From Candidatus Brocadiaceae bacterium (lineage in GTDB: Bacteria; Planctomycetota; Brocadiia; SM23-32), in contig JAAYEJ010000045.1 of assembly GCA_012728835.1 (NCBI GenBank), positions 36,475 to 100,474 on the forward strand: a stretch of DNA of 64,000 nucleotides, in the 5' to 3' direction. The stretch's first letter is position 1, and each line of letters begins with the position of its first letter. The notes below the pieces were generated by a model. The model was given only the letters and a program-made list of their open reading frames with translations, was not told where the DNA came from and did no database searches. The translations under genes and the position numbers were made by a program. Shown in pieces: positions 5,489 through 47,656 of the stretch.

Positions 5489-5642
5489 GTCGAGCCTTGG
5501 CGCTGAAGCGAAGTGGGGCCGATCCCTTATAGGGCGCACGGTGGGGCTTTGCAAGCGACTGCGCGGCGGGCCCTCAATGGGCAGCGCCGGGCGCCTGGCA
5601 CGGACGCCTCAGCGGGGCCGTGGCGGGCGGCTGCCGGGAATC

Positions 5643-19222: not shown

Positions 19223-21088
19223 TCAGCCGGCCCCGAGTTCCTTCTCCATCTCCTGCCAGAGTGCCCGCACGGCCGTCGCGGCCGGCCCGCGGCCGTGTTC
19301 CACGAGGTTGCGGCCGGCGCAGAGGGCTTCGTTGACATTGGGATCGAAGGGGATCCGGCCGATGACGCGGGCGCCGTATTGGGAAGCCATCGCGCGGATG
19401 CGCTCGGCCTGCTCCGTGTTGAGGTCGCACTTGTTGATGCAGATCACGCTCTGCACGCCGAAGTGCCGGCAGAGCTGCAGGGCACGTTCCATGTCGTGCA
19501 CGCCGGAGACGGTCGGCTCGGTGACGATCAGGGCCAGGTCGGCGCCCGAGACGGAGGCGATGACGGGGCAGCCGGTCCCCGGCGAGCCGTCGTTGATGAT
19601 CCTGGACTGCCCGCCGTCGGCGGCCAGGTCCGATGCGCGCTCGCGCACGTGCGTCACCAGCTTGCCGGAGTTCTCCTCGGCGATGCCCAGCCGCGCGTGC
19701 GACATCATGCCGTGGCACGTCTCGGAGACGTAGCTCTGCCCCGTGCAGTTGTCGGTGACGTCGATGGCCCCGATCGGGCAGACGTGTCCGCAGAAGCCAC
19801 AACCCTCACAGGCGAGGTCGTTCACGGCGTAGGCGGTGGGCGTTCCGTCGGCGGCATACACGGGATCGATGGCGTCGAAGTGGCAGTGCGCAGCGCACAC
19901 GCCGCAGGCGACGCACTGCGCGGAACGGATCGTCGCCTTCTTTCCACCGTAGAAGTCCTGCGCTTCCAGAACGCGCGGCCTGAGCAGCAGATGCAGGTCG
20001 GCGGCGTCCACGTCGCAGTCGGCCATGACCTTGTCATCGCTCAGTGCGGCCAACGCGGCCGTCACCGTCGTCTTGCCCGTGCCGCCCTTGCCGCTGATGA
20101 CGGTGCACTCCCGGTATGTCCTGCCGCTGCCCGAGCGCGGCGGGGCCGTCTCGGCCGGCGCTGTCTGCGTGTTCCATACCTCCGCCGGAGCGGCCGGCGG
20201 TTCCTGTGTCGACAGCTCGACCATGCGCCGGTAGACGGACAGCAGTTCGTCCGCCACCTCCGGGAAGGCGTCGATCAGCAGGTCGCCGCGCGAGTAGGTC
20301 TCCGCGTACTTCCGGCTGAACGGGATGCGGCCGATGATGGGCACGCCGACGCGGTCAGCGTATTCCCGGATGATGGTGTCCCGTCCGTCGGATCGGTTCA
20401 CCACGATGCCCGTGGGACGGCGCAACTCGAGCGCCAGGCCGACCGCCAGGCCCAGGTCGTTGAGCCCGAAGGGCGTCGGTTCGGTAACGAGGATCACCGC
20501 GTCGGCATCCCGCACGGCCTCCACCACCGGGCAGGCGGTGCCCGGGGCGGCATCGATCAGCGTCAGGCCCTCGTCGGCCGCGTGCTGCTTGACGCCGCGC
20601 ACGACCGCGGGCGCCAGGGGCTCGGCCACGTTCAGCAGGCCGTGGGCGAAGTAGAACTCGCCGGAGCCGGGGTCCGCCTCCACCGTGCCGATGACCACCT
20701 CGTGCTCGCTCAATGCGCCTTCGGGGCAGATGTAGCTGCAGAGCCCGCACGCGTGGCAGAGTTCGGAGAAGATGAGCACGTTGGGTGTCGGGGGACCGTC
20801 CTCGGACGGCTTGTTGACAACCGCGATGGCGTTGTAGTTGCACGCCTCCTGGCACTTCCTGCAGCCGGTGCACCGCTCAGGGTCCCATTGCGGGCGTCGC
20901 ACCGCGACGTCTTGCCTTTCGGAGAAGTGCGGGTGAACGAACAGGTGATCGTTCGGCTCCTCGACGTCGCAGTCAAGGAGGCGGACCGGCTGCCGGATGC
21001 TGTCGCCGCGCGTCAGGGCGGCGGCCATGTTGACCGCGACCGTCGTCTTGCCCGTGCCGCCCTTGCCGCTGGCGATGGTAATGACCAT
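19223..21088 (-). CDS. tandem fusion of two MinD/ParA-type P-loop ATPases, each carrying an inserted 2x[4Fe-4S] ferredoxin domain (COG1149-like)
   Basis: Two GKGGTGKTT Walker A motifs (aa 8 and about 330). Four CxxCxxCxxxCP ferredoxin motifs. Confidence 0.8.
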   Translation of the reverse strand: MVITIASGKGGTGKTTVAVNMAAALTRGDSIRQPVRLLDCDVEEPNDHLFVHPHFSERQDVAVRRPQWDPERCTGCRKCQEACNYNAIAVVNKPSEDGPPTPNVLIFSELCHACGLCSYICPEGALSEHEVVIGTVEADPGSGEFYFAHGLLNVAEPLAPAVVRGVKQHAADEGLTLIDAAPGTACPVVEAVRDADAVILVTEPTPFGLNDLGLAVGLALELRRPTGIVVNRSDGRDTIIREYADRVGVPIIGRIPFSRKYAETYSRGDLLIDAFPEVADELLSVYRRMVELSTQEPPAAPAEVWNTQTAPAETAPPRSGSGRTYRECTVISGKGGTGKTTVTAALAALSDDKVMADCDVDAADLHLLLRPRVLEAQDFYGGKKATIRSAQCVACGVCAAHCHFDAIDPVYAADGTPTAYAVNDLACEGCGFCGHVCPIGAIDVTDNCTGQSYVSETCHGMMSHARLGIAEENSGKLVTHVRERASDLAADGGQSRIINDGSPGTGCPVIASVSGADLALIVTEPTVSGVHDMERALQLCRHFGVQSVICINKCDLNTEQAERIRAMASQYGARVIGRIPFDPNVNEALCAGRNLVEHGRGPAATAVRALWQEMEKELGAG

Positions 21089-21129
21089 GGTACTTCACTC
21101 CCATGAACTCGGATGGCATACGACTCCGG

Positions 21130-22023
21130 CTATGCGTTCGGCGCGGCCGAAGGGGACTCGCTCGCTTCGATGATCTGTTCGACCACGCGGAGGAACGCCT
21201 GCCCCGCCGCGGTCTCGGCGCCACCCCTGACGAACGGCACGCCGTCCTCGCACGCCTGCATCAGCGTGGGGTCGAGCGGGATGCGGCCCAGGAAGGGCAC
21301 GCCGGCCCTGCCGGCCATCGCCTCCCCGCCTCCGGCCCCGAACACATCGGTGCTCTTGCCGCAGTGCGGGCAGACGAATCCGCTCATGTTCTCCACCACG
21401 CCGAGAACGGGCAGGTGGAGCTGCCGGCAGAAGCCGATGCACTTGCGCACGTCGGCCAGGGCCAGCTCCTGAGGCGTCGTCACGACGACGCCGCCGGTGG
21501 CGCCCGGTATGAGCTGGCAGACCGACAGCGGTTCGTCGCCCGTGCCGGGCGGCAGGTCGACGATCAGGTAGTCCAGCTCCCCCCATTCCACGTCCGCAAG
21601 GAACTGACGCAGCACGTTCATCTTCAACGGGCCGCGCCAGATGACGGCGTCGTCCTTCTGGCGAAGCAGGAACGCGATGGACATGACCTGAAGGCCCGGG
21701 CCACAGGGCGCGGGCAGGATCTTCTGCCCGTCCGAGAGCAGGTGAGTCTCGTCCAGCCCCAGGATCTTCGGCACGCTGGGGCCATGGAAGTCGGAGTCCA
21801 GCAGGCCCACCTTCCGGCCCGTCATGGCCAGGGCGACGGCCAGGTTTGCCGCCACGGTGCTCTTGCCGACGCCGCCCTTTCCGGACATGACGGCCACGGT
21901 GTGCTTGATGCCGGCCACCTGCTGCCGGAGGCGGCGCTCCTGTTCCTGACGTTCCTGCATCTGGTCTGGCCGGGCATTCCCGGCCCCGGAGGGCTCCTCA
22001 ACGGACTGCTCTGGGTCAGGCAT
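21130..22023 (-). CDS. mrp: Mrp/ApbC/NBP35-family Fe-S cluster carrier ATPase
   Basis: SGKGGVGKST Walker A. Conserved CPHC (GFVCPHCG) cluster-ligand motif. Confidence 0.85.
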   Translation of the reverse strand: MPDPEQSVEEPSGAGNARPDQMQERQEQERRLRQQVAGIKHTVAVMSGKGGVGKSTVAANLAVALAMTGRKVGLLDSDFHGPSVPKILGLDETHLLSDGQKILPAPCGPGLQVMSIAFLLRQKDDAVIWRGPLKMNVLRQFLADVEWGELDYLIVDLPPGTGDEPLSVCQLIPGATGGVVVTTPQELALADVRKCIGFCRQLHLPVLGVVENMSGFVCPHCGKSTDVFGAGGGEAMAGRAGVPFLGRIPLDPTLMQACEDGVPFVRGGAETAAGQAFLRVVEQIIEASESPSAAPNA

Positions 22024-24731: not shown

Positions 24732-25721
24732 TCACTGCTGCGGAGGCATCGGGGCTCCCGGCGCCATCCCGCCCTGCATCATGCCCTGCTGCATCTGCTG
24801 CAGGGCCGCGACCATGGCGGTGAGTTCGGCCTCGCTCAACTGGGTGGCCAGCCGCACTGTGGCGCCCTCGCCGTAGATCCGCGCGTTGTCGATCAGCGGA
24901 CGGAAGGGCTGGAACATCATGGCCATGAAGTTCGACGGCTGCGCCATCTGGGCCTTGACGCCGTTCAGGCCCTCCGCGCCCTGAGCGGCGACCTGCACGG
25001 CGGTGGCGGCGTCGGCCAGCTCGAGCAGGCCGTTGATGGACAGCCCGGCGGGCATCGAGACGCCAAGGGCCACCCCCTTGGTGCCGGCCAGCCAGGCGGG
25101 CGCGTTGGGGTCGGCCTGGGCCTGGGCCTTGAGGTCGTCGGTCAGGACGAAGGCCCCCTGGATCGGCTCGCGGAGATACGGGGAGGCCAGTTGCCGGGCT
25201 GCCTTGAGATCGTCGCGAGCCTGGCCCCTGAACGCCACGATCCCCTTGGCCAGGCTGGCCTGGGTGGACCCGAACAGAAGCGTGGTGTCGTCGGCGACGA
25301 CCAGCATGGGCGACTCGCCGGGGCCGGCGGCATGGTCCAGGGCATAGGCCGCCATGCCCTCGACGGTGGTCGCCTGCCCCGTCAGGAACTGGGCGACATC
25401 CTCGCGGATCGTCTCGGTGCCCTTCACGAGGCCGCTCACTTCCGGCGGGCCTCCCTCGGCTCCCGGCAGCACGAACAGGACGAACTGGTCGAGCTTCTGC
25501 ACGTCCACCGGCACGGGCATGCCCTGCCTCAGGCTCTGAGCCAGCGGAGAGCCGAGCAGCCTGGGCATGTCGACGAGCAGGTAACCGACGGAACCCGCCG
25601 GCGCCTGGTCCAGCAACTGGAGCCGCGCCCGGGGCGGGGCGACCACGGCAGTCTGCGCGTGAACCGCGAAGGCCGACATCAGCAGGCAGACAACACAGAA
25701 CAGCAGCTTGGCATGCTTCAT
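24732..25721 (-). CDS. secreted hypothetical protein with Gln/Met/Gly-rich C-terminal tail
   Basis: Signal peptide MKHAKLLFCVVCLLMSAFAVHA. No family recognised. Confidence 0.55.
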   Translation of the reverse strand: MKHAKLLFCVVCLLMSAFAVHAQTAVVAPPRARLQLLDQAPAGSVGYLLVDMPRLLGSPLAQSLRQGMPVPVDVQKLDQFVLFVLPGAEGGPPEVSGLVKGTETIREDVAQFLTGQATTVEGMAAYALDHAAGPGESPMLVVADDTTLLFGSTQASLAKGIVAFRGQARDDLKAARQLASPYLREPIQGAFVLTDDLKAQAQADPNAPAWLAGTKGVALGVSMPAGLSINGLLELADAATAVQVAAQGAEGLNGVKAQMAQPSNFMAMMFQPFRPLIDNARIYGEGATVRLATQLSEAELTAMVAALQQMQQGMMQGGMAPGAPMPPQQ

Positions 25722-26138
25722 GGGGTTCAATCCTGCCTCTCTATGCACACTCGCTGGGAAATCCCCTGTCGTCCGGTCGGGCAGCCATGCATCGCCGCCC
25801 ACCGACACCGGAAGGCAATCCATCGGTCCTGCGCCGGCCCCTCCTCTGGCCATGATCGCAGAAATCGCGTTCGGCAGCCGTCCGACGCTCCAGGCCGGGC
25901 GCTCAAACCATGCCCGAATAGTACGCGCGCCGGGCCGGTCTGTCAAGGTGAAAACCGGGGGGGCCGCCCCGAGGCTCGTCTGCGGGCGGCACGGTCCGTG
26001 CCCCGCCCCGCGCCCGTCGGACACCCCGCGTGCAAAAAATGAGCCTTGACTTCCCCGGGCGTCGCGCTATCATCGGTTATTGGCGGTGGGGGCACCAGGG
26101 GGAGATGTTTGGTCGCCGTTTGGGAATGGGAGGCGTTC

Positions 26139-27129: not shown

Positions 27130-28986
27130 TCAGGTGATGGTCTCGAAACCGGTGATGACCGGCGGCACCGCGAATGCGTTCCCGTTGCCTTCGATCTCCA
27201 GGGAGTCGAGGCCGGCAGCACCGTCGAGGGCGGCCGATCCCTCGACGGTGATGGCGCCGGCAGGTCCGACCTCCGCACGGTCATCTCCCGCGCCCATCCG
27301 CACGTTCAGTCTGCCGCCGAACGCGGAGGCGTACAGCGCCATCCAGTCGTCTTCCGTCCCCGTGTCGAGCAGGAAATCCCCTCCGAAGGAGGACGACACC
27401 CCCACAACCACGGTGTCGATGCCCCCGCCGGTCTTCACCGACGTCCGACCGCCGACGGTCAGTGCGAACAGTTGGACGGAGTCGGCGCCCGTGCCTGTGG
27501 CGATCGTGAGGTCGGCTCCGATTCCGGTGGGGTCCAGCACGATGTTGCTCGCGCCGGCACTCTTGTAGGCGACACTCACGCCGCCCCCCACTCCGGACCC
27601 GACGAGCGAGAAGGTGTTGACCCCCTCACCGCCGGCCACCTTCACGTTGCCGTTGATGCCGCTGTCGTAAATGTTCGTGGCACCGCCGCCGGCGCGGTTG
27701 CTGATTATCAGGTCGGCTCCGATGCCGGCGCTCTCAACGACGACAACGGCATTCCCCGTCCCGCTCCGGAAAGAGACACTGCCGCCCGCGCCGGAGGTGC
27801 CGCCGAAGACGATGTTGCTGCTCCCGTCGCCCTTGCGCACGGTCACGTTGCCGCCGACGTCGGCGTTGTCCATGACCAGGCTGTCGTCACCGGATCCGTT
27901 CGCGATGCCGACATGGCCGCCGAAGTCGCTGTCACTCAGAACGATGCTTCCGCCGCCGTGACCATTGTTCACGGCCAGCCCCCCGCCGACGCCCGTTCCA
28001 CTCACCACCAGGTTGTCGCTGCCGTCGCGCGCAGCGATCTTCACCGTCCCGGCAACGCCGCTGTCGACCAGGACGCCCGTGCTGTCGCCGGCGCCGTTGC
28101 CCACGCGGAGACTGCCCGCCACGCCCGTTCCGTTCAGGACGAAGCTGTCGAAACCATCCTTGTTCGTGAACTTCGCGGAGCCTCCGATGCTGCTGTACGC
28201 CAACGCGGCCGCGTTGTTGCCGTTTCCGCTGCTGACCGTCACCTTGCCGGCGACATCCACCGAATCGAGCACGAGGTGGTCGTCGCCGTCCGCACCGGCG
28301 GCCTTGAACGAACCTCCCACGCCGGAATCGTGCAGGACCGTCGCGCTCCCCCCGGCGCCGGTGGCCACGCTCACACGGCCGGCGACGTCCGTCGCGTCCA
28401 GCGTCACCGTGTCGTGGCCATCTCGGTTCTTCACCAAGACCGCCCCGCCGACGCCGCTCCCGTTCAGGACGACCCCGCTGCCCCCGCTTCCGTTCGCTAT
28501 CACCACATTCCCGGTGATGGTGGAGCCCTGAACGACGCTGTTGTCAATCCCGTCGCCGTTCTTCACCCGGAGGCCGCCGCCCACCGAGCTGTTGAGGACT
28601 GTGAGCTGGTTGTCGCCCGTGCTGCCGTCGAAGGCCACGTGACGGGGAGCATTGACGCCCTCCAGCCTGGCCCGATCGTTGCCATCCCCCATCGCGATGA
28701 TCACGTCCCTTCTGACGCCGGACAGAACGACCGAACCGGCAGGGCCGCCACCGGTGTCGATCAGCGTGCCGTCCGTGCCCGTGATGCGCATCTGACCGGC
28801 GGCCAGGCCAGCCTGGTCGATCACGACGCTGTTGTCCTGAACGTCGCCCGTCAGGATCAGGTTGCCGGCACCCGACAAGGCAACCAGCACGGTCCCCGAC
28901 AGCAGCAGCCGCGGCTCCAGCGTCTCAAGGACCAGCCGGCTCCGACGGCGTCCCTCATCTCGCCCGACCCCAGGCCTCACTGTCAT
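27130..28986 (-). CDS. secreted Gly/Asp-rich repeat protein (about 22 copies of an approximately 25-aa repeat) with N-terminal LEPRLLLS motif
   Basis: GGGAGG RBS. N-terminus MTVRPGVGRDEGRRRSRLVLETLEPRLLLSG. Periodic motif G-x-G-x-D-x-x-V-L-x-x-S-x-V-G-G throughout. Confidence 0.75.
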   Translation of the reverse strand: MTVRPGVGRDEGRRRSRLVLETLEPRLLLSGTVLVALSGAGNLILTGDVQDNSVVIDQAGLAAGQMRITGTDGTLIDTGGGPAGSVVLSGVRRDVIIAMGDGNDRARLEGVNAPRHVAFDGSTGDNQLTVLNSSVGGGLRVKNGDGIDNSVVQGSTITGNVVIANGSGGSGVVLNGSGVGGAVLVKNRDGHDTVTLDATDVAGRVSVATGAGGSATVLHDSGVGGSFKAAGADGDDHLVLDSVDVAGKVTVSSGNGNNAAALAYSSIGGSAKFTNKDGFDSFVLNGTGVAGSLRVGNGAGDSTGVLVDSGVAGTVKIAARDGSDNLVVSGTGVGGGLAVNNGHGGGSIVLSDSDFGGHVGIANGSGDDSLVMDNADVGGNVTVRKGDGSSNIVFGGTSGAGGSVSFRSGTGNAVVVVESAGIGADLIISNRAGGGATNIYDSGINGNVKVAGGEGVNTFSLVGSGVGGGVSVAYKSAGASNIVLDPTGIGADLTIATGTGADSVQLFALTVGGRTSVKTGGGIDTVVVGVSSSFGGDFLLDTGTEDDWMALYASAFGGRLNVRMGAGDDRAEVGPAGAITVEGSAALDGAAGLDSLEIEGNGNAFAVPPVITGFETIT

Positions 28987-29419
28987 GACCGTCGCCTCCC
29001 GAAAGGTGCAGGATGCCGAGTCTCCGACCGGGCATTCTACCCACCGGATTCTGCCGGCACAAGGATGCTCTTCTACAGCGCCGATCGGAAGGGCGTGCGG
29101 CTATTCCACACCCCTTCCACGGGCTGTCAGGTCAGCCGGAATCTTCAAGGAGGTCCGACGCTGCAGTGTTGGGGGCCGGGCGCCACTTCGAATGCTGCGC
29201 CTCACTGCCGGGCTCTGGACCCGGGTCAGGCGCCGGCTCCACCAGGGTGACGCCCTCCGGCTCGCGGGTTGACGGAGCAGCCGACGGTCCGCTGAGCCGG
29301 CCCCAACACCCGTCCGGCCTCCCCGCGCGTGCCCTGGGTGCCCCTGCGGTCGATCACCACAGACCGCAGCGCCTGCTCCGCCAGGTTGGTGACCGTTCAC
29401 GGATTTCCTGAGAATCCGC

Positions 29420-29671
29420 CCTCGACGTTGTCGTATGCTGCCGGTGGTGTGCGCCGGCCCGGACGCTCAGGGCATCCCGGACCACTGCGACTACCCGGTT
29501 CACGACAGCAAGCTGGAGGGAATCAGCAACAGGATCAAGGTTGTCAAGCGCGGGGCCTACGGCCATCACGACGATCGCTGCTCTCCCCTGCAGGTCGATC
29601 AGGCATTCGACCCCGAACCGCCCGCACTTCTCAGGAGATGGACCTTTCCGAGAGCGGCCTCATCCCCCTGA
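29420..29671 (+). pseudogene. ISL3-family transposase, C-terminal remnant
   Basis: VHDSKLEGISNRIKVVKRGAYGHHDD matches the conserved ISL3 C-terminal block (EGxNNKIKxxKRxAYGFR). The rest of the transposase is absent. Confidence 0.55.
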
Positions 29672-29708
29672 GGCAGCCCGCTCCAGGAGTCCAGGCAAGG
29701 ATACGCTC

Positions 29709-31370
29709 ATGCACGCAGATGACGGGATCGGGGTGGAGGTGCGGGAGGCCGCGCGGATGGTGGTCCCGGAGGATGCGGCCATCTCCCCGCCGGCAACGAG
29801 ACTCGACCGTATCTTGCCCTGGGTGGTCGCCGGCATCGCCGTGTCCGCCGCCATTCTCGCTGTGAAGCTCACGCTCATCCGGCCCTACTGCACGGGCGAC
29901 TCGGCGAGCTACCTGGGCGCCGCGCGCAACCTGGCGGCAGGGCGGGGGCTGACGATCCCGTGGGGCACGCCGACCGACCGGCCGCTCGTACACTTCCCGC
30001 CGCTGTACCCCGCCGTGCTCGGCGCCGTCGGCTCCCTCGGGCCGGACCCCCTCGTTGTGAGCCGGTGGATGAACGCCGTGCTCCTGGGACTGAACGCTGC
30101 GCTCGCGGCGCTGGCCGTCTACGGCACGACCAGAAACCGGGCGCTCTCGTGCCTGGCGGCGGTGCTGATGGCCGCATCGCCCGTCATGCTGCGCATGCAT
30201 ACGGCGGCGCTGTCCGAGCCGCTGTTCGTCTTCCTCCTGCTGGCCGCGCTGGCGGCGCTGCACGCGTACGCCCGGCGGCCCAGTCGCCGGCTCTTCCTCC
30301 TCGCCTGTGACGCCACGGCGCTGGCGCTGCTGTGCCGCTGGGCGGGCGCGCCGCTGGTGGCAACGGGCGCTCTGGTCGTCTGCGCGTTTGGCGCGGGCGG
30401 CCTGTGGAAGCGGCTCGCGCGGGCGGCGGCGTTCGGGTTGCTCAGTTGCCTGCCCGCCGGCCTCTGGATGCTCAGGAACCTCCGGCTGGGCGGCACCGCG
30501 ACGAACAGGACGTGGGCGGCCCACCCGGTCACCCGACAGCAGATCGACGACGCGCTCCGCGCCGTCTCCGGATGGGGTGTGCCGGGGTTCCGGCCCGGCA
30601 CCACCCTGCAGCACTCGCTCATTCCGTTGGGGCTGCTCTGCCTGGCTGCCGTGTGCTTCGCTCTGTACCTCACGCTCCGGCGCGGGAACGTCCCGGTGGG
30701 GGAGCGGCTGCGCCACCTCCCCTGGGCGTACGCGGCCTTCCTCGTCACCTACTGCGCATTCCTCCTGGTCAGCGTCTCCTACTGCGACCGCCTGACGCCC
30801 CTGGACAACCGCATCCTGCTGCCCGCGTATGCGGCGTGGCTCGTGGGCGTGCTTGCGGTGTGGCCGGGCGCCTGGATGTGGGAGGCCCGGCGGTGGGCGG
30901 CGCGCAGGCTGCCCCTGCTGCCGTGGCTTGCCATAGCCGTGATGCAGGTGCACGCCGGCGCGCGATTCGCCGAGTTCGAGCACAACAGGACGCGCCTCTC
31001 GGCGAGTTCCTGGAACGTGCGGGAGACGCGCGCCGCCATGTCCGTGCCGTGGGACCGGCCGGTGTACAGCAACCGGCCGGAGGACTACTACATCTACGTG
31101 AACAAGGTCGTGAAGGAATGGCCTTCGCCGCTCGACGTGTGGTCGGGCCGTCCGGCGCCCGGCTACAAGGAGAAGCGCGACGCCGCCGTCCGGGAACTGA
31201 CGGAGTCCGGCGGGCGGCTCGTCCTGCTCGGCACGTCCATGAAGCCCTGGCTGGATCGCGACCAGATTCCGCAGGACGTGCCGCTGGTGCGGCTCCAGGA
31301 TGAGGGGAAGGTGCACGTCTACGCCGTGGGCACGCAGCCCGCGCGGCGGGGCTGGCCCTGGCAGAGGTAG
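29709..31370 (+). CDS. polytopic membrane protein, GT-C fold glycosyltransferase-like (PMT/ArnT family 39/83-like)
   Basis: At least 11 predicted TM helices with periplasmic loops. General similarity to ArnT/PMT_2 type proteins. The start is at the internal MHADDG (AAGGA RBS). Confidence 0.5.
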   Translation: MHADDGIGVEVREAARMVVPEDAAISPPATRLDRILPWVVAGIAVSAAILAVKLTLIRPYCTGDSASYLGAARNLAAGRGLTIPWGTPTDRPLVHFPPLYPAVLGAVGSLGPDPLVVSRWMNAVLLGLNAALAALAVYGTTRNRALSCLAAVLMAASPVMLRMHTAALSEPLFVFLLLAALAALHAYARRPSRRLFLLACDATALALLCRWAGAPLVATGALVVCAFGAGGLWKRLARAAAFGLLSCLPAGLWMLRNLRLGGTATNRTWAAHPVTRQQIDDALRAVSGWGVPGFRPGTTLQHSLIPLGLLCLAAVCFALYLTLRRGNVPVGERLRHLPWAYAAFLVTYCAFLLVSVSYCDRLTPLDNRILLPAYAAWLVGVLAVWPGAWMWEARRWAARRLPLLPWLAIAVMQVHAGARFAEFEHNRTRLSASSWNVRETRAAMSVPWDRPVYSNRPEDYYIYVNKVVKEWPSPLDVWSGRPAPGYKEKRDAAVRELTESGGRLVLLGTSMKPWLDRDQIPQDVPLVRLQDEGKVHVYAVGTQPARRGWPWQR

Positions 31371-31988
31371 CTGTCCCTGTTCGCGCGCGTCGGTCGCCGT
31401 CGTTCCGTCGCCCGGAGGTGTCCCCGCACGCAGTCGCGGGACTGGTTCCGCCGCGCCCTGAAGGCGGCCCTGGCGGACCTCACGGCAGATGGGCAGCGGA
31501 AGAAGAAGCAGTTGTCCAGCCGGCAAGGCGACCTGAAGGTGATGCAGGAGCGGCTGCTGAACGCCTACCTGGCCGGCGCGGTGGAGGAGCAGACCTTCCG
31601 AGCGAAGTCGGCGGAGCTGAAGGTCGAGCAGGAGAGGGCGGCGGAAGCGGTGGAGCGCGCTCGCGGGGACATGGACGCGTCTCGCGGGGACATGGCGCTA
31701 CGGGTCTTCGATTGGGCGCAAAGACTCGGGGAACTCTGGCGCGGTCTGAACATCGAGCGCCGGCGGGCGATTCTGGAGACGGTATGCTCCAACCGGCTGC
31801 TGGACGACGTAAGTCTGCGCCTGGAAAAGAGAAAGCCCTTCGAGGTTCTCGCCAAAGGGCCGGAATGCCAGAGTGGTACCCCCGACTGGCCACACTTCCA
31901 GCGCGCCGTGGCCGAATTCACCATAGCCTTCGAGCTCCCCCATCCATGCCTGCTGCGTGCTGACGAACTCGCACGCGAATGGCTCTGA
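31371..31988 (+). pseudogene. large serine recombinase, C-terminal coiled-coil region only (N-terminal catalytic domain missing)
   Basis: In-frame translation from 31371 gives ...LKAALADLTADGQRKKKQLSSRQGDLKVMQERLLNAYLAGAVEEQTFRAKSAELKVEQE... This is typical of the C-terminal coiled coil of large serine recombinases. The frame begins directly after the stop of the upstream gene. Confidence 0.5.
31787..31881 (+). repeat. direct repeat copy 1 (about 95 bp, about 84% identical to 33285..33379), inside the recombinase remnant
   Basis: tccaaccggctgctggacgacgtaagtct...ggccggaatgccagagtggtacccc. Confidence 0.8.
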
Positions 31989-32017
31989 GGTCGGCGTGGC
32001 TCGTTGTCGTCGCACAG

Positions 32018-32638
32018 TCATCGCCAGGTGATGGGCTTACGGAGTTCGTATCCGTCGGCCTTGAGCACCGGATCCGGCAATTGGCTTGCGGCTATTCGTG
32101 CCCGGTTGATGTGCAGAAAACCGCTTGCACGCCGCTGCAGTTCGGCGGAGTATCGTTTCGGAGGAAAAGCCACCACGACCTGCTTCTGCGGCCACTCGCG
32201 ACGGACCACCTGGACAGGGCCAGCAAGATCGCTGTCAGCGGACACGAGAAGTGCCGTGTCGAATTCACCGCGCATGGCGTCGAGAAGCATCTGCACTGCG
32301 ATGTTCACGTCGGTTCCCTTCTCCTCGTGGTCTGTCCACCGGTTCGAGCACTTGAAGCATGTCCGCTCCTTGTTGAGGTAGTGCCCGTAGTGGATGACGA
32401 TATCCGAATGCGCCTGGAGCGCCTCGAGGTAAGTATTCTGGCGGTGGGGCTTGTCTGGATCGGACGGTGTCCCTGACACGCGAGCCGTGAAGTAGTTGAC
32501 ACGTGCCAGCTCCTGGTGCGGTTTCAGAAGCGCTCGGATAAGACCTTCGATGTCCAGCCAAAGGAAGCGCTGCCAGCCAGCTTGCCGCAGGCCGAAGTAC
32601 AGGTTAAATCCGTCAATGTAGGCGACCAGCCGTTGCAC
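32018..32638 (-). CDS. NYN-domain (PIN-like) predicted ribonuclease
   Basis: VAYIDGFNLYFGL N-terminus and conserved acidic residues (DxD...SAD) typical of the NYN/LabA-like family. Confidence 0.6.
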   Translation of the reverse strand: MQRLVAYIDGFNLYFGLRQAGWQRFLWLDIEGLIRALLKPHQELARVNYFTARVSGTPSDPDKPHRQNTYLEALQAHSDIVIHYGHYLNKERTCFKCSNRWTDHEEKGTDVNIAVQMLLDAMRGEFDTALLVSADSDLAGPVQVVRREWPQKQVVVAFPPKRYSAELQRRASGFLHINRARIAASQLPDPVLKADGYELRKPITWR

Positions 32639-32737
32639 GTGGGCCCTCTAGAGCGGGAACGGATTCACCGGCCAGCGTCCCGACAGCGCCAGGACGAGAG
32701 CAGGCAAGCAAAGCAGAAGAAAAAGCGTGAGCCATGC

Positions 32738-32834
32738 TTGACGCCTGCTGCCGAGGCGGGTATTATACTAGAAGAAGCTGCCCCGCCAAGGATAGCATCC
32801 TTGGCTCAACGCCCCGAAAGGGGCGTTTCTTTGT
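32738..32834 (+). ncRNA. candidate small RNA: consensus promoter TTGACG-N17-TATTAT, about 60-nt transcript with two hairpins, the second a terminator-like stem-loop followed by TCTTTGT
   Basis: -35 at 32738-32743 and -10 at 32761-32766. Hairpin 1 CCAAGGAtagcaTCCTTGG at 32786-32804. Hairpin 2 AACGCCCCgaaaGGGGCGTT at 32808-32827 plus U-rich tail. AT-rich island in a 70% GC background. Confidence 0.3.
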
Positions 32835-33284
32835 ACCGCCGCAGCCTCTCAAGGCCCCTCGCTTACCTGGCCTGAACCTCCAGGGAGGTCACGTAGGTCT
32901 CCGTGTGGAGCCGCTGTTCGACCTCCGACAGGGACTACGTCAGCATCCTCGCGGCGTGGACGCGCTGCGACGTCAGACCCCGGCGACGGATAACGCGCAG
33001 GAGCGCCAGCACGGACGGGGAGGCGTGGCAGTGGCTGTGGAAGAATACATGCCTCTCGAAGGACGCGCTGAGAGACGCGAGTGGCGTGCCCGCCAAGAGG
33101 CTTGAGGCCAAGCTCGATGCGCTCATCGCGAACCGGATCATCTACCCGGATGGCACCGTCAACTCGTTCGTCGCGTTCTCCGGCTTCTCGGCGTTGACGC
33201 TCCTGCCCGGAACGCGCTGCATGCTCCCGTCGCGGCCAGCGCGCAGCCTGATTCCTAACCAGATTGGGCCGATGCGGCCCTCGT

Positions 33285-33379
33285 TCCAACCGTACCCTGG
33301 ACGACGTAAGTCTTTGCCTACAAAAGAGATGGCCCTTCGACGCGCTCGCCGAAGGGCCGGAATGCCAGGGTGGTACCCC
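33285..33379 (+). repeat. direct repeat copy 2 (3' end of the recombinase reading frame), overlapping the 3' end of tRNA-Arg on the opposite strand
   Basis: Translates in frame as LDDVSLCLQKRWPFDALAEGPECQGGTP..., matching copy 1's LDDVSLRLEKRKPFEVLAKGPECQSGTP. It ends in tggtacccc, the tRNA 3' end. Confidence 0.8.
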
Positions 33380-33446
33380 GTGCAGGATTCAAACCTGCGG
33401 CCTTCGGCTCCGGAGGCCGACGCTCTATTCGCTGAGCTAACGGGGC
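33371..33446 (-). tRNA. tRNA-Arg (anticodon CCG), CCA encoded
   Basis: Manual fold. Acceptor GCCCCGU/ACGGGGU, D-arm GCUC/GAGC, anticodon stem UCGGC/GCCGA with loop CUCCGGA, T-arm GCAGG-UUUGAAU-CCUGC, discriminator A, CCA. About 76 nt. Confidence 0.85.
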
Positions 33447-43745: not shown

Positions 43746-44546
43746 TCAGGACTCCACGGGGCCCTCGGTGTCTTCGGCCGCTGGGGCCGGCGGCTCCCGG
43801 CGCGGCTGCAGGTCGATGTGTTCGGCGCGGATGCGGTCTCCCAGGTAGCTTTGGCGGGCGATCGGGTCTTCCAGAATCTCCTGCGCCGTGCCCTGAGTGA
43901 CGATCTTGCCCTCGCTGAGGATGTAGGCGCGGTCGGTGATGCGCAGGGCCTCGAGCACGTTATGATCGGTGATCAGGACGCCGATGCCCCGGTATTTGAG
44001 GCCGACGACGAGGTCCTGGACCTCCCCGACGGCGATGGGGTCCACGCCGGTGAACGGTTCGTCCAGGAGGATGATCTTCGGGTCGCCGCAGAGCGCGCGG
44101 GCGATCTCGAGCCGGCGGCGCTCGCCGCCGCTGAGGCTGTAGGCGGGCTGGTCGCACAGGTGCTCCAGGCCGAACTCCTCGAGCATCTCGTCGGTCTTGG
44201 TTCGGCGCTCGGCCGCTCCACGCCCCTGCATCTCCATGACGGCCAGCAGGTTCTCGGCCACGCTCATGTTCTGGAAGAGGCTCGGCTCCTGGGCCAGGTA
44301 GCTCATGCCGAGGCGCGCCCGGCGGTACATGGGCAGGCGGGTGACGTCGGTGCCCTGGAAGAAGACGGTTCCGCCGGCCGGGCGCACCAGGCCGATGCAC
44401 ATGCGGAAGGCCGTCGTCTTGCCCGCGCCGTTCGGCCCGAGCATGCCCACCGACTCGCCGTCGTCGACGTTGAAGCTGACGTGGTCGACCACGGCGCGGC
44501 GGCTGTAGTGTTTGACGAGTTCTCGGGCCTCGAACAGCATCGGCAT
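43746..44546 (-). CDS. lptB: LPS export ABC transporter ATP-binding protein LptB
   Basis: Walker A GPNGAGKTT, signature LSGGERRRLEIARAL, Walker B ILLDEPFTGVDP and an LptB-type C-terminal extension. Confidence 0.8.
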   Translation of the reverse strand: MPMLFEARELVKHYSRRAVVDHVSFNVDDGESVGMLGPNGAGKTTAFRMCIGLVRPAGGTVFFQGTDVTRLPMYRRARLGMSYLAQEPSLFQNMSVAENLLAVMEMQGRGAAERRTKTDEMLEEFGLEHLCDQPAYSLSGGERRRLEIARALCGDPKIILLDEPFTGVDPIAVGEVQDLVVGLKYRGIGVLITDHNVLEALRITDRAYILSEGKIVTQGTAQEILEDPIARQSYLGDRIRAEHIDLQPRREPPAPAAEDTEGPVES

Positions 44547-44767
44547 TCGCAACCCAGGGTGCGAGGTGCGCGGGCATAACGGAGACCCTATTCTATCGCG
44601 ACGGGGCGCGGCGTTCAACGGGCCGGGGGCGTCGGCCGGGCGTCGGCCGTGGGCGGCTAACCGCCCCGGGGCCAACGGGTTGGGGGGCCGGGAGTTCTTG
44701 CAAACGCGGGGGCCTTTCACTATAATCGCCGGGGTTCAGAACTTGAGAGCATGGGGAACTCCGCCTA

Positions 44768-46461
44768 TGGCCACTCGCAAACCCATCGGGCAGCTGCTGT
44801 TGGAAAAGGGCCTTGTAGAGAAGGAGCAGATCCAGCGGGCTCTGGAGTATCAGCAGAAGTCGGGCGAGAAGCTGCGGCTGGGCGAGATCCTGGTCCGATT
44901 CGGATACGTCACCGCAACCGACGTCCTCAAGTGCGTCGGCGAGCAGTTCGACGTGCGCGTGGTGGACCTGAACAAGGTCCGGCCCGAGGTGGAGGCCGTC
45001 GACGCCGTCCCGCGCAACACCGCCCGGATGCACGGGATCCTGCCGCTGAAGAAGACAGGCAACGCGATCGTGGTCGCCATGGACGACCTGGACCTGTGCG
45101 CGATCGACAACCTGAAGTTCATCCTGAACATGGACGTCAAGCCGGTCCTGGCGGCCGCCGACGACATCAAGGACGCGATCGAGCGCTTCTACGGCGGCGA
45201 AGAGTCCACGATGGACAACATGCTGCGGGAGTTCACCGAGGGCGAGGCGGTCGCCGAGAACGGGACGACCCAGATGATCGGCGACGAGGGCGATGACGCC
45301 CCGCTGGTGCGCCTGGTGTTCCTGATCGTCAGCGACGCCGTCCAGGCGCGCGCCAGCGACATCCACGTGGAGCCGATGACCAACCGCCTGCGCGTCCGCT
45401 ACCGCATCGACGGCGTCTGCCAGGAGGTGGAGTCGCCCCCGAAGCGCCTGCAGAACTCGATCATCGCCCGCCTGAAGCTGATGGCCGGCATGGACCTGGC
45501 CGAGAAGCGGAAGCCGCAGGACGGCCGTATCCCGCTGGTCATCAACGGGCAGTCGCTCGACCTGCGTGTGAGCGACATCCCCACGACGGACGGCGAGAGC
45601 ATCGTCATGCGTATCCTGAGCAAGGAGGCCGCGCGCGTCAGCCTCGTGGAGCTGGGCTTCCACCCGTCCGACCTGGAACACTTCGAGCGCATCATCCGGC
45701 GGCCGAACGGCATCTTCCTGGTCACGGGCCCGACCGGCAGCGGCAAGACGACGACGCTCTACAGCGCCCTGAACGAACTGAACCGTCCGGACACGAAGAT
45801 CATCACCGCCGAGGACCCGATCGAGTACACGTTCCCCGGCATCAACCAGTCCCAGGTCCAGACGGACATCAACCGCACGTTCCCGGTCATCCTGCGCGCC
45901 ATGCTCCGGCAGGCGCCGGAGATCATCCTGGTCGGGGAGATCCGCGACGAGGAGACCGCCGAGATCGCCGTCCGGGCGGCCCTGACCGGCCACCTTGTCT
46001 TCAGCACCCTCCACACGAACGACGCCCCCAGCGCCATCCCCCGTCTGATCGACATGGGGATCAAGCCCTACATGGTCGCCTCGTCCGTGCAGGCCATCAT
46101 GGCCCAGCGGCTGATCCGGACGATCTGCACGAACTGCAAGGAGCCGTACGAGTATCCCGAACGCCAGCTCCGGGCCGTCGGGCTCGATCCGGAGAGCGTC
46201 GAAGGCATCACCCTCTACCGCGGCGCCGGCTGCAACCGCTGCAACGGGTCCGGCTATCACGGCCGGCTGGGCATCTTCGAACTCATGGAAATGAACGCGG
46301 ACCTGCGCAACCTGACGTTCGCCAAGGCCGCCACGGGCGAGATCCGCGAGAAGGCCCGCTCCTTCGGCATGCTGACCCTGATGGAAGACGGGCTGCGCAA
46401 GGTCATCCAGGGCGTCACGACGATCGACGAAATCCTGCGCGTCGCCGGAGGCGTGGAATAG
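44768..46461 (+). CDS. GspE/PilB-family secretion/pilus-assembly ATPase with N-terminal MshEN-type domain
   Basis: Walker A VTGPTGSGKTTTLYSAL, Asp/His boxes and tetracysteine C-terminus. N-terminal RLGEILVRFGYVTATDVLKCVGEQ fits the MshEN c-di-GMP-binding motif. Confidence 0.85.
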
Positions 46462-46553
46462 GAGCCGGTCGGCGCCGAACGGGTCGCACGGCGCCGGCGG
46501 GAGGGTCCTGCCGGTGCTCGTAATGGTACCTTCAGTCCAGGTGTTCGCCGACT

Positions 46554-47618
46554 ATGATCCAGATTGACAAGCTGCTGTCCACCGCCATCAAGCGCGAGGC
46601 CGAGGACATCGTGCTGACCGTCGGCCGGCCGCCGATGCTGCGCTTGAACGGAGCCCTGGAGCCCCTGGCAACCCAGACGCTGACCAGCGAAGACACGACC
46701 GGGCTGGTCAAGTCCATCGCCTCCGAACGGTATCAGCAGGAACTGCAGGAGATGGGGTCGGCCGACTTCGGCTTCAACTTCCAGGACAAGGCCGCCTTCC
46801 GCGTCGGTGCCTTCCGTCAGCAGGGTCGCATCGCCATCGTCCTGCGGATGATCCCCTCGAAGATCCGGACCTTCAGCGAACTGGGGCTCGGCCCCGTCGT
46901 GCAGGAGTTGCTGTTCCGCCCCCGCGGCCTGGTCCTGGTCACCGGCCCGACCGGCAGCGGCAAGACCACGACGCTGGCCACGATGGTGGACCACATCAAC
47001 AACAACCGCAAGGTGCACATCCTGACGATCGAGGACCCGATCGAGTACCGGCACCCGCATCGCAAGAGCATCGTCAGCCAGCGCGAGGTGGGCGTGGACG
47101 TGCCGGCATTCGGCGAGGCCCTGCGCCGCGCCCTGCGGGAGTCGCCGGACGTGATCCTGGTCGGCGAGATGCGGGACCTGGACAGCACCCGCCTGGCCAT
47201 CAGCGCCGCCGAAACCGGCCACCTGGTCCTGTCGACCGTCCACACGCAGAGCGCACAGAGCACCGTCGAGCGGATCATCGACGAGTTCCCGCCCCAGCAG
47301 CAGGCGCAGATCCGCATCCAGCTCGCCAACAGCCTGCTGGCCGTGCTGGCGCAGACGCTCGTGCCGCGCCTCGGCGGAGGCATGGTGGCCGCCTACGAAG
47401 TGCTGCTGGTCACCAACGCCGTGCGCCACCTGATCCGCGACAACAAGACGTTCCGCATCGACTCGACGATCCAGACGGGCCGCGACCGGGGCATGCAGCT
47501 GCTCGACGATCACCTGCTGCAGCTCTACAAGGAAGGCATCATCGAGCGCACCGACGTGCTGACCCGCTGCCGCTACCCGGAGGAGGTCTCCAACAGCCTC
47601 AAGGCCCTGGAGGTCTGA
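46554..47618 (+). CDS. pilT: twitching-motility ATPase PilT
   Basis: PilT N-terminal domain, GPTGSGKTTTLATMVDHIN Walker A and AIRAALRQDPDVILVGEMRD-like box. Confidence 0.85.
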   Translation: MIQIDKLLSTAIKREAEDIVLTVGRPPMLRLNGALEPLATQTLTSEDTTGLVKSIASERYQQELQEMGSADFGFNFQDKAAFRVGAFRQQGRIAIVLRMIPSKIRTFSELGLGPVVQELLFRPRGLVLVTGPTGSGKTTTLATMVDHINNNRKVHILTIEDPIEYRHPHRKSIVSQREVGVDVPAFGEALRRALRESPDVILVGEMRDLDSTRLAISAAETGHLVLSTVHTQSAQSTVERIIDEFPPQQQAQIRIQLANSLLAVLAQTLVPRLGGGMVAAYEVLLVTNAVRHLIRDNKTFRIDSTIQTGRDRGMQLLDDHLLQLYKEGIIERTDVLTRCRYPEEVSNSLKALEV

Positions 47619-47656
47619 CATCCCGCTCAGGTAACCCGTTGGGGTGGAAACAAGCA

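Follow-up and report, generated by a model that had tools for sequence, protein, structure and literature searches.

An earlier note on a 64-kb stretch of DNA (the window) described an open reading frame (ORF) at 27130-28986 as the gene for a large secreted repeat protein. This raises the questions of whether the ORF is a gene at all, what its repeats build and how the product would leave the cell. On balance, we think that its product is a rod-shaped β-solenoid protein that is exported and probably resides on the cell surface or outside the cell, in a bacterium that is assigned, indirectly, as Planctomycetota-like.

The gene and its surroundings

The ORF list contains the frame at exactly these positions, on the minus strand and 618 aa long (Table 1). 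High-GC DNA yields long ORFs on both strands, and here a 736-aa ORF on the plus strand overlaps the gene in antisense, as would suit a spurious ORF or a low-complexity artefact. However, GC1/2/3 of the 618-aa frame is 0.67/0.52/0.85, the pattern of a real gene, as compared with 0.83/0.55/0.67 in the antisense ORF; the decisive values are thus a GC3 of 0.85 against 0.67. A ribosome-binding site is present, homologues that share conserved caps number in the thousands, and the fold prediction is confident. Taken together, codon-position GC, the homologue scan and the fold prediction refute the spurious-ORF reading, which we credit with next to no chance of being correct, and the ORF is a genuine gene. 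An identical 618-aa gene call, with conserved gene context, is found in the ENA metagenome assemblies ERZ764845 and ERZ27268605. Neither the ORF list nor a six-frame reading gave an in-frame start between the upstream stop and the ATG, which excludes a hidden signal peptide upstream. The product contains 20.7% Gly, 12.9% Val, 8.1% Asp and no Cys, and is Gly/Asp-rich as described earlier.

Table 1. Features of the 618-aa gene and its product (positions in the window).
Feature	Position	Strand	Details
Coding sequence, complete	27130..28986	minus	618 aa + stop, ~59.6 kDa, pI ~4.5, no Cys
Shine-Dalgarno-like GGGAGG	28995..29000	minus	8 nt 5' of ATG; direct sequence reading
LEPR-XLL motif, proposed export/sorting signal	28873..28935	minus	residues 18-38, LVLETLEPRLLLS...; NF012209 match
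N-terminal cap sub-domain	28693..28896	minus	residues 31-98; pLDDT 86-98; invariant alignment columns
~22 coils x 22 residues	27223..28692	minus	residues 99-588; autocorrelation, repeat HMM, AlphaFold2 strands
C-terminal cap	27133..27222	minus	residues 589-618; pLDDT 90-97

The earlier note had also seen the gene as the first of an accessory region with remnants of mobile elements at its borders. This view found little support: the GC content of the gene is ordinary (0.67-0.69), it is flanked by core-type genes, and the sole trace of a mobile element is a 1.5-kb segment of lower GC at a tRNA-Arg, approximately 2.8 kb off and beyond another gene. No conserved partner gene emerged from the six gene neighbourhoods compared, and promoter, terminator and Rfam scans around the gene returned nothing. 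A PMT-like glycosyltransferase gene adjoins the gene here and is found at a distance of 7 kb in another of the family contexts, which we do not judge to be significant.

A capped array of 22-residue coils

BLOSUM62 autocorrelation of the protein gave z-scores of 11.3 at lag 22 and 12.0 at lag 44 relative to 200 shuffles, i.e. a periodicity far above chance. The period had previously been put at about 25 residues; autocorrelation, together with a spacing of exactly 22 over 13 consecutive units, corrects it to 22. In contrast, both the proposed number of about 22 units and the proposed motif G-x-G-x-D-x-V-x-L-x-x-S-x-V-G-G were borne out, with a repeat HMM fitting 22-23 units into one register between residue 99 and approximately residue 610. 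Position frequencies in the family define the unit as x-G-x-G-x-D-x-U-x-U-x-x-x-x-U-x-G-x-U-x-U-x, which contains one RTX-like turn (xGxGxD-x-U-x) per coil. At position 6 of the repeat, Asp alternates with Asn, Ser or Gly over 14 consecutive units, so that the array has a 44-residue super-repeat and Asp occupies this position in only roughly half of the coils. The register table shows the coils to be uniform and free of loop insertions. At the DNA level, Tandem Repeats Finder detected no tandem array, only an 18-bp element of 2.2 copies, which points to repeats of great age that have since degenerated.

The array is enclosed by two caps. The N-terminal cap carries the highest conservation in the family and follows the pattern G-x-V...G-x-L-x-L-T-G-D-x-x-D-N-x-V-V-I-D-Q-A-G-L...R-I-T-G-x-D-G-T; the C-terminal cap reads ...D-G-A-A-G-L-D-S-L-E-I-E-G-N-G-N-A-F-A-V-P-P-V-I-T-G-F-E-T-I-T, and the C-terminus given earlier, ...VPPVITGFETIT, is present in the 618-aa protein.

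The earlier suggestion of a regular solenoid agrees with structure prediction. AlphaFold2 run with a 60-sequence alignment returned a β-solenoid with three strands per 22-residue coil (pLDDT 89.7, pTM 0.82; pLDDT 71.7 with three sequences), in which residues 31 to 618 are solenoid and caps throughout. In the multi-module relative P0039 the N-cap motif recurs at the starts of internal modules and the GFE motif at their ends, which argues that the module is an autonomous domain. As modelled, residues 31-618 would form one such module, composed of the N-cap, about 22 stacked three-strand coils of 22 residues and a C-cap ending in GFE. Within each coil, the hydrophobic residues at positions 8, 10, 15, 19 and 21 are predicted to point inward, and there is a single Gly-rich, RTX-like turn, N-G-x-G-x-D.

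The closest solved folds are extracellular Ca2+-binding β-rolls and β-helices, and the resemblance is loose (TM 0.2-0.5). With the better model, the Foldseek list was headed by the S-layer protein RsaA (E 5e-4, probability 0.94) and the RTX part of CyaA. Region IV of the antifreeze protein MpAFP (MpAFP RIV; 3p4g) was the best match of the first model (probability 0.99, TMt 0.44-0.50) and recurred for the second; across its matches, probability ranged from 0.72 to 0.99, E from 0.026 to 0.33, TMt from 0.32 to 0.50 and rmsd from 6 to 10 Å. At the sequence level, a PDB search with the 618-aa protein found no match, a search with the family profile nothing meaningful (an EF-hand protein at E 0.25), and the repeat body as a whole matched no Pfam, NCBIfam or PDB sequence.

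MpAFP RIV is a Ca2+-dependent right-handed β-helix of 13 coils within a 1.5-MDa T1SS adhesin; its coils have 19 residues, an xGTGND turn and a Thr/Asx ice-binding face (PMC3492233). The two proteins have in common a single Gly-rich turn per repeat (xGTGND versus xGxGxD here) and, as predicted for the 618-aa protein, a parallel β-helix of short tandem coils, which, with the Foldseek ranking, could suggest an ice-binding or antifreeze β-helix. However, the 618-aa protein has about 22 coils of 22 residues, carries Asp in alternate coils only, and lacks the regular outward Thr/Asx ladder, coil positions 7-10 being mostly x-U-V-L; the Foldseek E-values are only 0.03-0.3, and no PDB chain is matched at the sequence level. 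We rejected this reading on the coil length and the absent ladder, and consider it very improbable.

Three-faced right-handed β-helices, such as CBM-54, pectate lyases and autotransporter passengers, are built of three strands and approximately 20-22 residues per coil, as is predicted for the 618-aa protein, and are surface proteins, as it may be. A polysaccharide-binding or -active β-helix of the CBM54 or pectate-lyase/PL6 type, directed at cell-wall or algal glycans, would accord with this coil geometry, with glycosidase-like domains fused in some relatives, with the presence of PL6 lyases among the Foldseek matches and with a weak match of the two-coil family profile to the CBM-54 coils of ChiW (5gzt_A, E 0.015). 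That last match is marginal for a low-complexity profile, and the PL6 matches do not exceed a probability of 0.16 or a TM of 0.19; the Beta_helix, Pectate_lyase and NosD models of Pfam remained unmatched in the 618-aa protein at E ≤ 1. Moreover, the coils are unusually uniform for this class and, having no loop insertions or catalytic loops, are unlikely to form a catalytic cleft. On these grounds the enzyme reading was rejected, and a glycan-directed β-helix in general seems to us improbable. Autotransporter and two-partner-secretion (TPS) passengers were also among the best structural neighbours in the PDB; this candidate was rejected because Pfam detected neither a β-barrel translocator nor an N-terminal TPS domain in the 618-aa protein, and residues 31-618 are all accounted for by solenoid and caps.

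RTX proteins consist of nonapeptide repeats, with 18 residues per turn and two rows of Ca2+. The β-rolls of CyaA and Caulobacter RsaA resemble the 618-aa protein in being acidic and Gly/Asp-rich with GxGxD turns, and it would share their extracellular location. As the earlier note had recognized, the repeat is nevertheless unlike the nonapeptide: there is one turn per 22-residue coil, PF00353 finds no match at E ≤ 1, and TM is ~0.2. By analogy with RTX β-rolls and MpAFP RIV, the row of Gly/Asp turns may bind Ca2+ and thereby stabilize the rod outside the cell, a proposal that draws on the RTX-like turn in each coil and on Ca2+-binding structural neighbours at low TM-scores. The lack of a PF00353 match, the restriction of the position-6 Asp to about half of the coils and TM values of 0.2-0.5 speak against it. 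The rod would measure about 22 x 4.8 Å, roughly 10 nm, and may serve as a structural, spacer or adhesive element of the surface; a non-enzyme role is suggested by the minimal coils, which lack long loops able to form an active-site cleft.

The N-terminal motif and the route of export

The LEPRLLLS string reported at the N-terminus is present at residues 23-30, preceded by a basic RRRSR at residues 13-17. NF012209 (LEPR-XLL) matches residues 18-38 with 27 bits (curated cutoff 17; E 2.3e-6), and the placement at the extreme N-terminus is that of the LEPR-XLL domain, whose members likewise combine a basic stretch with L-E-x-L-E-P-R-L-L-L-S within the first 30 residues. The related Pfam model PF07595 (Planc_extracel) stays below its gathering threshold in the 618-aa protein (12.1 versus 25.5 bits). 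Among 60 relatives, 14 match NF012209 and seven match PF07595 at E ≤ 0.01. Six-frame reading of the window found a LEPR motif in a plausible N-terminal position in this gene only. The motif defines approximately the first 30 residues and carries no information on the protein body.

Residues 17-30 (RLVLETLEPRLLLS) match the published consensus RRLxxExLExRxLLA, for which a role in export to the planctomycete cell surface was proposed (PMC8567305). T. immobilis has 52 genes whose products carry the equivalent motif LxLExLExRxxP; 20 of these proteins were seen by proteomics, eight of them solely in the SDS (envelope) fraction (PMC8567305). The claim of a planctomycete sorting motif can thus be retained in part: the motif is of a recognized sorting type, but since the LEPR-XLL name is also borne by Vibrio and Limnohabitans proteins, it is not restricted to Planctomycetota.

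AlphaFold2 assigned residues 1-30 a pLDDT of 45-55, which puts them outside the fold. Hydropathy analysis of the 618-aa protein revealed no classical signal-peptide h-region ahead of the motif, and in the family the median of the maximum 10-residue Kyte-Doolittle score before LE.R is 0.08. The sequence after LE.R is moderately hydrophobic (maximum 2.35 in the 618-aa protein, family median 1.73), and here the hydrophobic residues 27-47 are predicted to be folded strands. Judging from the sequence, residues 1-30, with the basic stretch and LEPR-XLL, may constitute a non-classical N-terminal sorting signal on which export would depend.

Several observations could also be read as those of a T1SS substrate of the RTX/RsaA kind, which would leave the cell by an ABC/MFP/OMP system with its C-terminus leading, fold with Ca2+ on the outside and perhaps form an S-layer-like lattice, leaving the LEPR N-terminus a part in retention or processing rather than in export. 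A canonical N-terminal signal peptide is absent; the protein is acidic (pI 4.5), Gly/Asp-rich and Cys-free; its C-terminus is conserved in the family; and type I secretion is the route of each of the top Foldseek matches (RsaA, CyaA RTX and MpAFP). In addition, a giant Vibrio protein is reported to have LEPR-XLL at its N-terminus and RTX and serralysin-type domains at its C-terminus (PMC10868602). Against this, PF00353 is matched neither by the 618-aa protein (E ≤ 1) nor by any of 60 relatives. Neither the vicinity of the gene, the rest of the window nor five further contexts of family members contained an HlyD, TolC or HlyB-type cluster, the sole ABC exporter in the window being encoded 33 kb away without an HlyD or TolC partner. 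Finally, GFE also ends internal modules of P0039, and this relative continues for approximately 110 residues beyond its last GFE; the motif thus has more the look of a structural cap than of a secretion signal at the terminus. Type I secretion is in our estimate an unlikely explanation, if marginally less so than the glycan-directed one.

LEPR-dependent export of a β-solenoid remains our preferred reading. A stronger version of it is that the family represents a new class of Ca2+-stabilized β-helix, in which every coil of 22 residues has one RTX-like turn, alternate coils form an Asp ladder and dedicated caps close the ends, and which is exported through LEPR-XLL and not by type I secretion. 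We regard this version as doubtful, with perhaps a modest chance of being right. If true, the family would parallel RTX proteins in function while using another secretion pathway, and LEPR-XLL sorting could be studied with this small (60 kDa) single-module protein as a minimal model cargo.

A large family that lacks a database model

Homologues were hard to find by words. A word-index search gave two matches with the whole protein, none with the N-terminal 154 residues and six with a 60-sequence profile; since low-complexity words swamp such an index, an exhaustive HMMER scan was needed. The full scan yielded 5460 cluster representatives when E ≤ 1e-3 was required; with the stricter limit of E ≤ 1e-10 there were 2729. 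Both counts are of clusters at 50% identity. GTDB genomes scanned with patterns from three sequences gave nothing, and with patterns from a seven-sequence alignment a single relative, in one Phycisphaerae MAG.

Almost all family members are unnamed or labelled 'hypothetical protein', and most share the LE.R N-terminus, the N-cap, the 22-residue period and the C-terminal GFE cap. The best period was 22 in 111 of the top 150 representatives. When the window protein was added to these, LE.R lay within the first 80 residues in 134/151, pI was below 5 in 144/151 (median 4.35), and x-[FWIVY]-E occurred within the last 14 residues in 87/151. The C-terminal consensus of the family is ...GGxGxDxL.....GNxF...P....FE.... 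In long members the module is fused to serpin, Calx-beta, M10, S8, glucoamylase-like, cyclophilin and PPC domains; in such larger relatives, the 22-residue-coil module may be the scaffold on which proteases, serpins and glycosidases are mounted.

Proteins that start with LEPR/LExR, often giant, number in the hundreds to thousands in Planctomycetes and several other phyla. The LEPR-XLL motif is already known as a proposed export signal; what lacks a database model is the 22-residue repeat body. The family is large and has one compact architecture, a LEPR motif followed by a capped β-helix of 22-residue coils, which databases do not model. If it is merely a structural surface rod, this would be an ordinary, though unannotated, β-solenoid. 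If Ca2+ binding is confirmed, coils of 22 residues would add a third geometry to the RTX-like Ca2+ β-helices of 18 and 19. Defining the family would allow the annotation of thousands of proteins, and the 618-aa protein offers a tractable single-domain substrate for studies of LEPR-dependent export.

Gene and repeat array

The 618-residue open reading frame is a real gene by its codon-position GC signature (0.67/0.52/0.85 in a window of ~70% GC); the antisense competitor, an overlapping plus-strand ORF of 736 aa, gave 0.83/0.55/0.67. A spurious ORF is effectively excluded. Two independent ENA metagenome assemblies (ERZ764845 and ERZ27268605) contain a gene call for the identical protein with the same neighbouring genes. 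A ribosome-binding site, GGGAGG, lies 8 nt 5′ of the ATG, and the absence of any earlier in-frame start after the preceding stop firmly fixes the N-terminus as MTVRPGVGRDEGRRRSRLVLETLEPRLLLS.... The protein (59.6 kDa, pI ~4.5) contains 20.7% Gly, 12.9% Val, 8.1% Asp and no Cys.

BLOSUM62 autocorrelation against 200 shuffles revealed sharp peaks at lag 22 (z = 11.3), lag 44 (z = 12.0) and lag 66, and thus a repeat period of 22 residues rather than the ~25 given in the earlier note. Its count of ~22 degenerate tandem repeats was accurate: a repeat HMM placed 22-23 units from residue 99 to ~610. The unit reads x-G-x-G-x-D-x-U-x-U-x-x-x-x-U-x-G-x-U-x-U-x, and residues 99-406, laid out 22 per line, kept the register with zero indels. 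Over these 14 consecutive coils (window 27769-28692), position 6 showed a perfect alternation of Asp with Asn/Ser/Gly, which explains why the 44-residue signal is slightly stronger than the 22-residue one; the 44-residue double coil may be the true evolutionary unit. Family-wide, the anticorrelation of neighbouring coils at this position was weaker yet significant (odds ratio 0.58, p = 0.0025). No tandem array was detected at the DNA level of the gene, so the repeat is old and diverged rather than a recent expansion.

Genomic setting

One flank of the solenoid gene carries DUF4332, DUF2780, M42 peptidase and Mrp/ApbC genes; on the other, a divergently transcribed PMT-like glycosyltransferase is followed by two S41 peptidases. 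The ~550-700 bp gap between the solenoid and glycosyltransferase genes (within 28987-31370) had no promoter-like, terminator-like or Rfam match. The context of the relative P0004 also includes a PMT/PMT_2 gene, with a GT2 gene, ~7 kb away, but four other contexts do not; O-glycosylation of the rod, which is rich in Ser/Thr, is conceivable but unsupported. Across the six family neighbourhoods compared, we found neither a shared partner gene nor a type I secretion system (T1SS).

The gene had been placed in an accessory stretch bounded by mobile-element remnants, a description that was not confirmed. GC is ordinary across the gene and the remaining window is largely core metabolism; the sole mobile-element trace is a tRNA-Arg segment (31788-33446) that starts 2.8 kb away, beyond the glycosyltransferase. 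There, a direct repeat flanks ~1.5 kb of lower-GC DNA (0.60-0.65) with an NYN-domain ORF and short gene fragments, and appears to be what is left of a small element that had integrated at the tRNA.

Elsewhere in the window, three T2SSE-family ATPase genes are syntenic, and share 50-60% amino-acid identity, with three on L001 (1-3960), the metagenome contig locus carrying the closest homologue, P0001; the organisms behind the window and P0001 are thus distantly related. Two further sizeable ORFs with coding-type GC3 lack a Pfam match, and the 430-aa one also had no NCBIfam match. A MrpORP/ApbC-like Fe-S carrier (384.7 bits, under the 450-bit equivalog cutoff) adjoins a 621-aa protein with two CbiA/ParA-type P-loop NTPase regions and 4Fe-4S ferredoxin domains.

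Features of the window
Feature	Position	Strand	Remark
Solenoid gene	28986 to 27130	minus	618 residues; from ORF list
PMT-like (GT39-type) membrane glycosyltransferase	29541-31370	plus	553 aa as called in ENA
Direct repeat, 95 nt	31788-31882 and 33285-33379		84% identical; includes tRNA-Arg(CCG) 3′ end
NYN-domain ORF	32018-32638	minus	inside the segment bracketed by the direct repeat
tRNA-Arg(CCG)	33371-33446	minus	
T2SSE-family ATPase genes	44512-49384		three consecutive; 649, 354, 581 aa
ORF without Pfam match	24732-26024	minus	430 aa
ORF without Pfam match	3488-5554	minus	688 aa
NTPase/ferredoxin protein region	19223-22023		

A family of capped solenoid modules

Neither the window protein nor 60 relatives and the profile built from them gave a Pfam, NCBIfam or PDB sequence match over the repeat body. 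When 1.84 billion cluster representatives were scanned exhaustively with HMMER, however, 5460 matched at E<=1e-3, of which 2729 passed E<=1e-10 and 187 passed E<=1e-30. The best period was 22 in 111 of the top 150 representatives. When the window protein was added to these (n=151), the repeat was found in every sequence, the median being 12 detectable units and the spacing mostly 22; 134 carried LE.R inside the first 80 residues, 144 had a pI<5 (median Cys content, 0.38%) and 87 had x-[FWIVY]-E within the last 14 residues. All ten cluster look-ups returned 'hypothetical protein' or no name, and the sole match obtained in a pattern-based scan of GTDB species representatives was a Phycisphaerae MAG. 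Taken with the N-terminal motif and the genes present, this match hints at a Planctomycetota origin of the window, short of proof.

The coils are framed by a conserved N-cap (G-G-x-L-x-I-T-G-D-x-x-x-N-x-I-x-I-D-Q-x-G-L...) and C-cap (...G-G-x-G-x-D-x-L...G-N-x-F...P....F-E). In P0039, a relative of 1816 residues, both motifs are found again at module boundaries inside the chain; they therefore cap the structure of a self-contained domain that can be reused, and are not terminal secretion signals. Long relatives fuse the module to serpin, Calx-beta, matrixin, subtilase, glucoamylase-like, cyclophilin, Beta_helix and PPC domains, a set typical of secreted proteins. On its JGI contig (sample 3300042731), the relative P0005 is one of four genes that follow each other on the same strand (822, 820, 825 and 491 aa) and lack a Pfam match; they are possibly a tandem array of paralogous solenoid genes.

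AlphaFold2 predicted the regular solenoid expected from the earlier note. With three sequences only, the core already reached pLDDT 80-95; with a 60-sequence family alignment, mean pLDDT was 89.7 and pTM 0.82, residues 31-618 being confidently placed and disorder confined to residues 1-30. Each unit is modelled as three strands (about positions 6-11, 14-15 and 19-22) with a two-residue turn, a G-G-x turn and a five-residue N-G-x-G-x turn between them, and hydrophobic positions 8, 10, 15, 19 and 21 alternate as an inward-facing core would.

Foldseek found no close PDB structure. For the 60-sequence model, the top matches were RsaA, an S-layer protein (E 5e-4, prob 0.94, TM ~0.2), and the CyaA RTX domain; for the three-sequence model, the top match was region IV of MpAFP (prob 0.99, TMt 0.44-0.50). 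Further down came PL6 lyases and the passengers of autotransporters and TPS systems. All are extracellular beta-rolls or beta-helices, the best ones Ca2+-binding. A carbohydrate-binding or carbohydrate-active beta-helix, suggested by the coil geometry and a marginal CBM-54 profile match (E 0.015), seems improbable. The closest design analogue is MpAFP region IV, a Ca2+-bound right-handed helix with one RTX-like turn per coil (PMC3492233); it has thirteen coils of 19 residues, whereas the window protein has 22-23 of 22. An ice-binding protein is effectively excluded. By analogy, the single row of RTX-like turns could plausibly bind Ca2+, which we rate about as likely as not.

Proposed export motif and role

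The LEPRLLLS sorting-type motif was borne out by NCBIfam NF012209 (LEPR-XLL domain), which scored 27 bits over residues 18-38 (curated cutoff, 17); Pfam's planctomycete model PF07595 stayed sub-threshold (12.1 vs 25.5 bits). The R-L-V-L-E-T-L-E-P-R-L-L-L-S stretch agrees with the consensus RRLxxExLExRxLLA. Mahajan et al. (PMC8567305), with reference to Studholme et al. (2004), describe it as a new type of N-terminal signal that has been proposed to export the cell-surface proteins of planctomycetes. In Tuwongella immobilis, the equivalent LxLExLExRxxP occurs in the proteins of 52 genes; proteomics detected 20 of these, eight solely in the SDS-soluble envelope fraction (PMC8567305). LEPR-XLL extends beyond the Planctomycetota: a giant RTX-type protein from Vibrio (PMC10868602) and a protein from Limnohabitans also bear the name. 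Among the relatives P0003-P0150, LEPRLLLS-like and LEERIAPA-like flavours precede the same N-cap, and may mark different lineages or sorting variants.

No hydrophobic segment precedes the motif in the window protein or its relatives, and the model assigns the moderately hydrophobic residues that follow to folded strands; hence the N-terminus is not obviously a signal peptide of the Sec or Tat type. The main rival, T1SS/RsaA-like secretion, would suit this lack of a classical signal peptide, an acidic protein without Cys and the best structural neighbours, but PF00353 matches are absent, the neighbourhoods compared hold no T1SS genes and the C-terminal motif of the module is also internal; we regard it as unlikely. 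Instead, the window protein is probably a rod-like beta-solenoid that is exported to the cell surface or the extracellular space. Its LEPR-XLL segment would direct export or sorting, and its body, a stack of 22 coils measuring some 10 nm, would have a structural, spacer or adhesive role.

The LEPR motif and the fold class are already known; the 22-residue, alternate-Asp, capped solenoid family is without a model, name or structure. The family would not surprise a specialist; its value lies in annotation and in providing a minimal LEPR cargo.
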